Positions 3,001-6,000 of a stretch of 22,394 nt of DNA are shown one piece after another. Position numbers: made by a program. Position 1 is the first letter of the stretch. Every line of letters begins with the position of its first letter. Where the stretch lies: the IMG/VR virus record IMGVR_UViG_2627853701_000001; one strand, written 5' to 3'. Source of the stretch: a virus. Lineage: Duplodnaviria > Heunggongvirae > Uroviricota > Caudoviricetes.

Positions 3001-6000
3001 GGTCTATAGATGAAAAACTAACCTGGAATGCTTTGTGCGATAGGTTAGTCAGGGTTATTGGGAAAAGACCATCAAGACAATCCTTAAGTAGTCATGTAAG
3101 GATTGCGGAAAGCTTCAATGTGAAAAAAACCACAATCAAATCTGGTGTAATACACACTGTAAAACCTGCTAATTTAAAAGTGGCTTCTCAACGAATTAAA
3201 AGACTTGAAGCAGAAAATGAAGCTTTGAAGGCATTAAATGAACGCTATTTAGAGCAGTTCAAAGTATGGCTTTATAATGCTCACCTTAAACAAATAACGA
3301 TTGAAGAACTTAATAATCCGTTACCTGCAAAATACCTTTAATAAAATTGATAGGTTTTAGCTATTGACATGGTGAAATATTATGTTATTTATTTTCTTGT
3401 CAGGACGACAAAATTTCACTATTGCAAGGATGCATATTATGGACAAAACAAATATTAACTTAATGGAAAGGTATCTTCTTCTGCTTGATCGATTCGTTGA
3501 TAAACTCGCTGAATCAGGTTTCTCAGAGCAACGAATTATCGAACAATCATATCTTTTTTGTGCAGGATTTTATATCAAATACCAGAGTGGTATAGAAAAA
3601 ATGACCTTCTCCAACAGGGAGGTTGTTTTAACCTTTCTGCTACTTTCATATTATAGTCATATAAATAAACTGGATGATGATTTGATCAACAAAGAGCGTA
3701 TGAAGCATGTATGTTCTTCATTGATTAACTTTATAGTCAGTAATGGTAGCCGAACAGAGAAAGTCTATGCTAATGAGAAAAGGAAATATGAGGCTTCAAC
3801 TCTAAAAAGAGAATTATCGAAAAAGGATAAAAGGAAAAGATATAGGTTGTAGTGTTTGTATGATTTTCATTAGACTTACTTAATCTATAGTCTAAATTTT
3901 AATATTAGATTCGTAAATCTATAATTCCATGAATCTAATTAATGCTTAAAAGCATCCTCTAAGATGCTTTTACTGTTACCATGCATACATACCCAGAACC
4001 TTTAACAAACGATAATAGAGGGGAGTTGTGTATAACAACTCCCTGACCTTACTAAGGTTAGCGATGTTATTCAGCATCATTCTGTCAAAGATTTAATTTC
4101 TTTGAAAAATACTAATTCTACCCCTTAAGTTAATAACTTCTGCTTGATCGTGTATTTTGGTAAGTTGGAGTACAATTTTTTGATTGGATCGTCAATAAGA
4201 AAAAGCTAGAATCCTTAGAAGGACATAGATTTTCATAGGGTTAAGATATGACGATTGCGAAGGATAGTTCGACTGATGAAATCATTCATGGAAATGATCT
4301 CCGTGGAATGGATGATTTTTACATTAAGACAACGAGTTTTGAATGCCCATACGAGCCTTGTAAAATTAAAGCCACACCTTGTAGTTTTACTATGAAACAT
4401 GTTAATCAATCATATTTCAGATATGGCGATAAACATAAGGATGGATGTGGTATTCATGATCCAAGATATAAAAACAATCATACTTCAAATGACGAAAGAA
4501 AACATAATTCGCCACCTGCTCCGGTTATATCACTTTTAAAAATTGATGTGAAACCAAGAGGTGGTGTTAAAAATGCCAGAAATATTAAAAATGAAAATCA
4601 CAAGGATGAAAAAAAAGGTAATGAACATCCTGTATCTTCATCAAGTATTAAGCCAGTCGTTGACTATTACATAAATAATAGCAATCATAATGAACAGCTA
4701 TCAATCCCTCCATATGGCACGCGATCTTATAAAGATACATTTCAACTTATTTTTTACAAAAACAACATACGTTATTACAAACCTGCTATTTATTATGGTG
4801 TAGCCCAGTCTAATATTCGTCTGCATGAAGATTCAGATAAACATTGTATTACTTTCCTCGCAAGGGATAAGAAAACCCAAAAACCATTTACGCTTGAAAT
4901 TGATGTTTCTGACTGGAATAAAAGTCAGAAGGATGTGTTTTGGAAGGAATATGAAAAGCAAAGGAAGGAAGCTGATAGGTATTATAAGGGGCTTAAAGAT
5001 AAAAGGAATGCTAAAAAATACTTGACGGTTTTCTTTTTTGGGATGCCGGATGAAAATGATAAGTTTCTATTTAAGACAAACCACTTTAAATTAGTATATG
5101 TGGCTTTCTTGGGTAAATTTGAAAGCTCATATAATGATAGTAATTATTACATTGAAAATGATCTGTCTGTATCATCATTGAATGAACAACCCATTTCATT
5201 ATCTGATATAGACCATAAAAATCATGAATATAATATTGAAACTTCATTAGATTTTAGTTCTCCTTTGCCAGAGCCAGAGCCAGAGCCAGAGCCAGAGCCA
5301 GAGCCAGAGCCAGAGCCAGAGCCAGAGCCAGAGCCAGAGCCAGAGCCAGAGCCAGAGCCAGAGCCAGAGCCAGAGCCAGAGCCAGAGCCAGAGCCAGAGC
5401 CAGAGCCAGAGCCAGAGCCAGAGCCAGAGCCAGAGCCAGAGCCAGAGCCAGAGCCAGAGCCAGAGCCAGAGCCAGAGCCAGAGCCAGAGCCAGAGCCAGA
5501 GCCAGAGCCAATAAGATCCTCTTTAAAGGAAAATACTGAGACTGTAGAAATGAACAGTAAAGTTTGGGGGAGGCTGAAAAAGATAATCACTTTCTTTAAA
5601 AAGTGATTTATGTTTCTGTAAAAAGCCCGTAGGTATCAACTGCGGGCTAAATTTTCCCTTGATGCTGGTTTTGTCTTTTATCTAAAAAATGCCAGTCTTC
5701 ACGTTGCTTGTTCCAGCATTAAAGATGTATGTGCTGACTTTTTCGCCTTTGAAAGAAACTGTCAGAGATTTAGTTTGTGAGTCTGCGCCACCTGCAAGCA
5801 GTCCCACAACGGGGATGAAAGAGGTTGCTTTGGACTGGCTGTTATACATAGTGTATGACCATTGTTCTTCACCATCGATCAAAGAACGGCTGTCAGGTTC
5901 ACCGAACGATGCTAACACGTCCTGTTTTGTAGTTTTGCCTTTAACAATTTTGGTTTTCACACTTTCCTGCGTCTCATTTTTCAATGACTGGTTGCCTACT

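Follow-up and report, generated by a model that had tools for sequence, protein, structure and literature searches.

A hypervariable Pro-Glu microsatellite at the linker position of a predicted Avs8B-type head-linker-tail protein in Escherichia coli O157:H7

The DNA analysed here (22,394 nucleotides, IMG/VR virus record IMGVR_UViG_2627853701_000001; the window) is Escherichia coli O157:H7 chromosome, with 100% identity to strain SS52, and lies in an island that adjoins ssrA/smpB. From left to right are found a recombinase module, the gene that is the subject of this report (4248..5606, plus strand; 452 codons by open reading frame (ORF) listing and translation, and a hypothetical protein in RefSeq), an IS30 insertion sequence remnant, what is left of a lambdoid prophage, IS66 and IS1203, genes for the type III secretion effectors EspW, NleG-like and EspM2, the transfer-messenger RNA gene and smpB. 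G+C content goes from 31% at the left end of the window to 56% in its prophage part. The best-supported description of the 452-residue product is of a head-linker-tail protein, in which an Avs8B-type head would be tethered by a long acidic linker to a membrane helix.

The preliminary description of this ORF, which listed its length, an N-terminal pattern of four cysteines, a lysine-rich middle, forty Pro-Glu units and a basic tail, has been confirmed in all these particulars. Cysteines stand at positions 33, 38, 45, 67 and 200, and include the pattern CPYEPCK...C...DGCGIH; residues 74-130 contain 12 Lys or Arg in 57; the tail counts 32 residues, 8 of them Lys or Arg and 3 Asp or Glu. The Pro-Glu run is exactly 40 units long (residues 341-420), and its coding sequence, CCAGAG x40 at 5268-5507, shows no variant base, insertion or deletion (100% matches in Tandem Repeats Finder, and a script count). 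A perfect 240-nt hexamer array cannot have originated by chance. Two minus-strand ORFs that overlie it (5222-5590 and 5254-5511) were rejected as repeat artefacts.

The protein had been taken for an orphan without a recognisable family, and this view fails. A word-indexed search finds about 20 (19-21) clusters of homologues in Enterobacterales, Moritella and Vibrionaceae, and an exhaustive hidden Markov model search finds 211 clusters at 50% identity (88 with E <= 1e-10), most of them ~300 residues long and matching positions 1-290, with distant relatives reaching Cyanobacteria and Francisella. With the PADLOC PD-Lambda-4_B model, 13 of 14 close relatives give a match, as do 101 of 104 in the wider set (best E 4.7e-189). 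The O157 protein's own match to this model is weak (E 1.1e-7, residues 151-284 against profile positions 161-294 of 303); hhalign comparison of its close family with 25 tail-less members gives a probability of 99.94% (E 5e-37) over 281 columns, 1-291 against 1-297. By profile comparison the O157 protein is a divergent member of the Avs8B/PD-lambda-4B superfamily.

PD-lambda-4 is now named Avs8. Its Avs8A component, an Mrr-nuclease/STAND NTPase, is a sensor of major capsid proteins with the HK97 fold; Avs8B is without described homology, is dispensable for defence against phage lambda, and confers no defence alone. The head of the O157 protein is homologous to Avs8B over its full length and shares its CCHC motif. 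Unlike canonical Avs8B, with its ~300 residues, the O157 protein has an additional acidic linker and amphipathic tail and, unlike Avs8, it is encoded on a recombinase/relaxase element with no Avs8A near: neither a PADLOC PD-Lambda-4_A match nor a STAND protein was found among the neighbours tested in the window and the related loci examined. The finding is one of new architecture and context for a known but uncharacterised family.

The head comprises three segments, all coordinates here and below being on the plus strand unless stated. The N-terminal subdomain (residues 1-73, 4248..4466), predicted with a local confidence score (pLDDT) of 89-96, contains a zinc-type CCHC motif, C33-x4-C38 ... 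H63-x3-C67. In 104 sequences C33, H63 and C67 never vary, and conservation of C38 is at least 90%; the counts among 128 representatives are 117, 112, 119 and 123 for C33, C38, H63 and C67, respectively. A metal site formed by the four N-terminal cysteines had been suggested, and comparison of homologues upholds a conserved site but changes its predicted ligands: C33, C38 and C67 stay, H63 is added, and C45, kept in only 45 of the 128, is dropped. A weak match to Pfam CoiA_N occurs in two of the 104 relatives (best 7e-5) and is not given by the O157 protein itself. The second segment (residues 74-130, 4467..4637) consists of lysine-rich loops of lower confidence (pLDDT 53-60, except around residues 90-100) with a conserved NSPP..IS.L stretch, of which N87, S88, P89 and P90 are invariant within the close family. 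The third (residues 131-310, 4638..5177) is modelled as a beta-barrel with a long helix (225-248), and the barrel weakly resembles an oligonucleotide/oligosaccharide-binding (OB) fold. A profile search against PDB sequences gave no match, and no real family for the head emerged from Pfam, NCBIfam or PHROGs, which returned only compositional matches of the repeat to PARP and TonB. The uncharacterised Avs8B family thereby gains a first structural description, as a predicted CCHC finger joined to an OB-like barrel.

Expression of the protein is indicated by a phosphopeptide, HVNQSyFR, which with its context matches residues 50-62 exactly and whose sequence is in no neighbouring ORF. This phosphotyrosine peptide, with the modification at Y56 (nt 4413-4415), is the sole proteomic evidence for the protein. 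Y56 is part of the zinc-finger subdomain and is flanked there by a conserved position, 55, and by F57, which is nearly invariant.

The linker begins with a non-repetitive segment (residues 311-340, 5178..5267) that aligns poorly among homologues, is predicted to be disordered (pLDDT 41-58) and ends in an LPEPEP seed context, from which the Pro-Glu array continues. Beyond the array, the basic tail (residues 421-452, 5508..5603) ends in an amphipathic helix and is, by its conservation and helical moment, a candidate membrane-targeting sequence; it is kept in Xenorhabdus, Yersinia, Pantoea and an E. coli paralogue. Extensions of at least 55 residues beyond the domain are present in 49 of the 128 representatives, are of low complexity (~40% Pro, Glu, Ser, Thr or Gln) and acidic on average, and close with a basic amphipathic segment at the extreme C-terminus, so that about a third of the family is predicted to have a linker and a membrane-type tail. 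The tails of these 49 proteins have a mean helical moment of 0.70 (0.37 in linker windows; 48 of 49 exceed their own linker mean) and a mean net charge of +4. Taken alone, the O157 tail has a helical moment of 0.66, a value reached by 17.5% of shuffles. One cyanobacterial member has a plain hydrophobic, transmembrane-like stretch at the tail position. The Pro-Glu run occupies exactly the family linker position, and the proposal that it is a spacer has held in this sense, the repeat separating a folded head from a terminal element that is conserved.

MinD and FtsA bear C-terminal amphipathic membrane-targeting helices. The O157 protein resembles them in having a short basic amphipathic helix at its very C-terminus after a flexible linker. 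The C-terminal helix probably sits on the inner membrane, the zinc-finger/OB-like head being held away from it on the long acidic linker. The helical moments of 0.66-0.70 found here compare with 0.78 for the C-terminus of FtsA. Unlike MinD and FtsA, with which there is no sequence homology, the O157 protein has a linker that is far longer and strongly acidic (net charge about -41).

Other repeats are found at the same linker position in related genes. In a Pantoea dispersa orthologue with 94% identical flanks, the linker is (QE)21-QG-(QE)5, encoded by CAAGAG, and is followed by the same tail as in O157. (The P. dispersa array, at L006 11020-11187, is CAAGAG x27 with one CAAGGG variant. A single base change in the unit has been homogenised through the whole array.) A second E. 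coli family, 61% identical and present in 251 of 5426 genomes, has a hypervariable 9-bp repeat, (AEV)n, encoded by GCTGAGGTT in about 6-59 units (L008-L010, about 10001-11330), and a homologous tail, RKIWTGIRKLISFFKK. In a Vibrio homologue of only 23% identity, which also has a basic tail, a CCAGAG array is long enough to have left a 790-N scaffold gap. The linkers of most relatives are non-repetitive.

The O157 array itself varies widely in length. Of 5426 complete E. coli genomes, 314 carry the gene, in every case on the chromosome; across 58 complete genomes sampled along the ranking it measures 1143-1431 nt, corresponding to (PE)4-52 with a median of about 20 units of CCAGAG, and all but five of the sampled lengths differ from 1359 nt by exact multiples of 6. 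The 40 units of the window copy are near the top of this range; two O157 strains have 17 and 25, an Enterobacter copy 5 and a Pantoea copy 10. Since all units are identical hexamers, the array must be young at the DNA level, growing and shrinking by slippage, and since the unit is 6 bp the reading frame is never lost. The O157 linker is encoded as a slippage-prone microsatellite, and the regularity of the repeat reflects DNA dynamics rather than protein design.

These observations bear on the suggestion, made when the repeat was first noticed, that alternating Pro-Glu is itself functional, either by forming a rigid, acidic rod or stalk or by mimicking a polyanion such as DNA. The linker's charge of about -41 would suit either role, the LPEPEP seed and even the CCAGAG unit recur in the distant Vibrio relative, and the composition brings to mind the Pro-Glu/Pro-Lys spacer of TonB and the EP procyclin of trypanosomes, whose alternating Pro-Glu sequences are thought to be extended. 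The likeness is compositional only: both matches fall on the repeat alone and far under the family cut-offs (TonB, 20.9 bits against 315; Trypan_PARP, 47.1 bits against 100), and the repeats of TonB and procyclin are short or fixed, and periplasmic or surface-exposed, whereas that of the O157 protein is a hypervariable microsatellite. Moreover, a 13-fold range of length among otherwise near-identical strains, forty units identical in their DNA (recent slippage, not an old selected protein repeat), the change of the whole array to (QE)n in P. dispersa, the (AEV)n that stands in its place in the paralogue, and the non-repetitive linkers of most relatives would not be expected of a selected rod; mimicry of a polyanion is made less likely by the AEV variant, with its one charge per three residues. 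A functional Pro-Glu structure is on this evidence quite improbable. The replacement of PE by QE or AEV, together with the length range, disfavours a specific rigid rod and supports a long, acidic, length-tolerant and possibly length-variable spacer.

The array is probably the O157 typing locus O157-10/TR2/Vhec1 of MLVA, the analysis of variable-number tandem repeats at multiple loci. O157-10 is built of 6-bp units, reaches the largest alleles (11-45 reported) and mutates fastest (1.8e-3 per generation); PulseNet gave it up as too unstable (PMC3777172, PMC3768571, PMC3519732). The Pro-Glu array agrees with it in unit size, chromosomal location and in having the largest and most variable alleles (4-52 here, 11-45 published). 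A second, standard MLVA locus lies only 1.3 kb from the array. Published primers for VNTR-9/TR1/Vhec4 match the window exactly at 6595-6625 and 7094-7120, and the sole Vhec4-null strain is also null at O157-10 (PMC3777172), as expected of loci so close together. On the other hand, the EDL933 genome copy has 17 units, as against 23 published for a laboratory stock, and a search with 10-mers of the array flanks for the O157-10 name gave no match. The Vhec4 primers bracket another perfect 6-bp array, TATTTC x9.8 (6852-6910), between the IS30 remnant and a prophage HNH gene. Many database entries for the family are marked partial, short-read assemblies breaking at the repeat.

On another explanation, the O157 gene is a functionless relic of a decayed element, its repeat drifting neutrally and of practical use only as a typing marker. 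The element is truncated by IS30, the array, as probably the most mutable of the MLVA loci (1.8e-3 per generation, PMC3777172), fits neutral slippage, and 6-bp changes never break the frame, so that an intact tail is no evidence of selection on the repeat. Against this, the 340 non-repeat codons are under purifying selection (dN/dS, the ratio of nonsynonymous to synonymous substitution, 0.10-0.20), the long repeats that paralogues have independently at this position argue that a long spacer is favoured, and the preliminary description's proviso, that an interrupted frame in related strains or a lack of transcript or protein evidence would refute it, has been answered by annotation of the gene as intact in 60 of 60 genomes sampled from the 314 carriers and by the phosphopeptide. 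The relic explanation is improbable.

The gene's setting is an element of which O157 retains only part. Just upstream of the window is a first tyrosine recombinase (L001 4794-5999); a second (1-1314) is followed by a 543-residue protein without recognisable catalytic domain or Pfam match (1311-2942) and by a small ORF of 132 residues (2943-3341; annotation). Both recombinases match Pfam Phage_integrase, and the module gives a weak PHROG integrase match. Then come an annotated 137-residue hypothetical ORF (3439..3852), which is conserved in the element family, and the Avs8B-like gene. The 137-residue ORF is 30% identical to orf137 of the Pantoea ananatis-type element, where it is placed after the Avs8B-like gene, and gave no family match in Pfam, NCBIfam, PADLOC or PHROGs scans. 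Convergent with the Avs8B-like gene is a small ORF with a BamE domain (5682..5984, minus strand; Pfam BamE 2e-6, PHROG 3135 3e-24, and annotation), which is the last intact element gene in O157 and is kept in L003 and L004. Two hairpins lie in the intergenic spaces. One, with a perfect 9-bp stem (GGGAGTTGT-TATAC-ACAACTCCC, 4021-4043), is located in the 395-nt gap that separates the 137-residue ORF from the Avs8B-like gene and may be the terminator of the recombinase operon, in which case that gene would have its own promoter. The other (AGCCCG...CGGGCT, 5624-5648) separates the convergent genes; a T-run follows it on the minus strand, making it a likely terminator of the BamE-like gene, and it perhaps terminates in both directions.

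Copies of the Avs8B-like gene that are 94-99% identical occur in Enterobacter, Pantoea and Xenorhabdus within a common element of about 10.5 kb. Its order is a helix-turn-helix (HTH) gene, two tyrosine recombinases, the 543-residue protein, ORFs of 132 and 140 residues and the Avs8B-like gene, with, on the convergent side, the BamE-like ORF, a 222-residue ORF, a MobA/VirD2 relaxase and a small ORF. Similarity of the O157 copy to the Enterobacter and Pantoea elements ends at L001 11944 (about window 6034), where the annotated IS30 transposase remnant begins (6035..6775, minus strand), and the 222-residue ORF, the relaxase and the last small ORF are missing; by this comparison IS30 has truncated the O157 element. 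Pantoea ananatis and Enterobacter cloacae have a version that is deeply diverged but retains the backbone, with 50% identity in the Avs8B-like protein, 50% in the relaxase and 31-39% in the recombinases. This shared backbone and the conservation of the gene in the diverged version imply that it is a stable member of the element family, not casual cargo. It had been called the main cargo of the recombinase module, and it does follow a four-gene module of this kind, but it is, with the relaxase, the best-conserved gene of the family, and the O157 copy of the element is truncated. By gene order (two recombinases, a large protein without detectable catalytic domain, a small ORF, then other genes) the module is like the ginABCD module of GInt islands (PMC5385486); unlike those islands, the element family carries a MobA/VirD2 relaxase. 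SE elements, intA-tfp-intB-srap, have a related module in a different order. The element looks, from its gene content, like a GInt-type integrative mobilizable element.

With this strong linkage to a relaxase-bearing element, a transfer-related function stands as the main rival to a role in conflict and defence. The protein would then belong to the element's backbone as a membrane-tethered DNA-binding accessory, bringing the relaxase-DNA complex to the coupling protein of a helper plasmid or handling incoming single-stranded DNA. It is found at one and the same site in two element lineages that have diverged deeply, is conserved to the same degree as the relaxase and more than the recombinases, has a distant tail-bearing relative in an element with a TrwC relaxase, and its zinc finger, OB-like fold and membrane tail (all predicted) would suit the handling of transferred DNA. 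Such a role sits less well with the intact and expressed O157 gene, which has outlasted the loss of the relaxase module, and with the relaxase-free sites of other family members: upstream of QatABCD and CBASS (251 E. coli genomes), beside AbiE and type I restriction-modification genes, at P2-like prophage ends, and in the Avs8 operon. A backbone function is a possibility to be kept in view, though an unlikely one.

The relatives that lack the recombinase module have varied neighbours. The AEV paralogue is almost always directly upstream of QatABCD, next to the Qat KAP NTPase gene, and near a CBASS operon; other relatives neighbour AbiE, type I restriction-modification or a BrxR-linked helicase/methylase system, occupy the accessory end of P2-like prophages, or are carried by a conjugative element of TrwC type or a plasmid-like region of a cyanobacterium. 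In viral contigs, the related-locus search with the closer alignment recovered no locus other than that of O157. At the end of a P2-like prophage in Veronia pacifica (L016 11362-12183), a tail-bearing homologue is followed 41 bp downstream by an HNH_2 nuclease gene, and the two may form a unit. A pentapeptide-repeat gene directly precedes two distant tail-bearing relatives, in Acaryochloris and in the metagenomic TrwC element (L022 7272-7901, L025 7285-7926), and may form a conserved pair with them; one of these two pentapeptide-repeat proteins also has an HTH_17 domain. Altogether, members of the family are carried by mobilizable elements, at the ends of prophages and in defence islands, settings that suggest a role in the conflicts of phages and mobile elements with one another.

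The O157 island also contains espW, an NleG-like DUF1076 gene and espM2 (17756-20316), in the adjacent prophage remnant, a unit separate from the recombinase element. Their presence 12 kb away in the same island, and the low G+C content of the Avs8B-like gene, might suggest that its product is likewise a secreted type III effector. This is most improbable: the gene belongs to the recombinase element and not to the prophage remnant, near-identical copies occur in Enterobacter, Pantoea and Xenorhabdus and distant ones in Cyanobacteria and Francisella, and the family is defined by its partnership in a phage-defence operon.

What remains to be considered is variability of the linker as a selected trait. 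(PE)n, (QE)n and (AEV)n share their position in related genes, and two of these arrays are independently hypervariable in E. coli. With this support, hypervariable in-frame linker repeats could be a selected property of tail-bearing Avs8B-like proteins and more than slippage that is tolerated; the array would then be a contingency locus, one that does not turn a gene on and off but tunes how far a membrane-tethered DNA-binding head reaches, or its charge. This reading is tentative, and a probability of roughly 0.2 is assigned to it. Length-variable coding repeats are well known in surface adhesins; their repeated occurrence in a predicted cytoplasmic, defence-associated protein is unusual. For O157, what is probably the most unstable typing locus acquires a biological setting, as a repeat within an expressed protein, where its changes would alter the length of a tether. 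If the variability is indeed selected, a clonal population would sample many tether lengths during conflict with phages and mobile elements.

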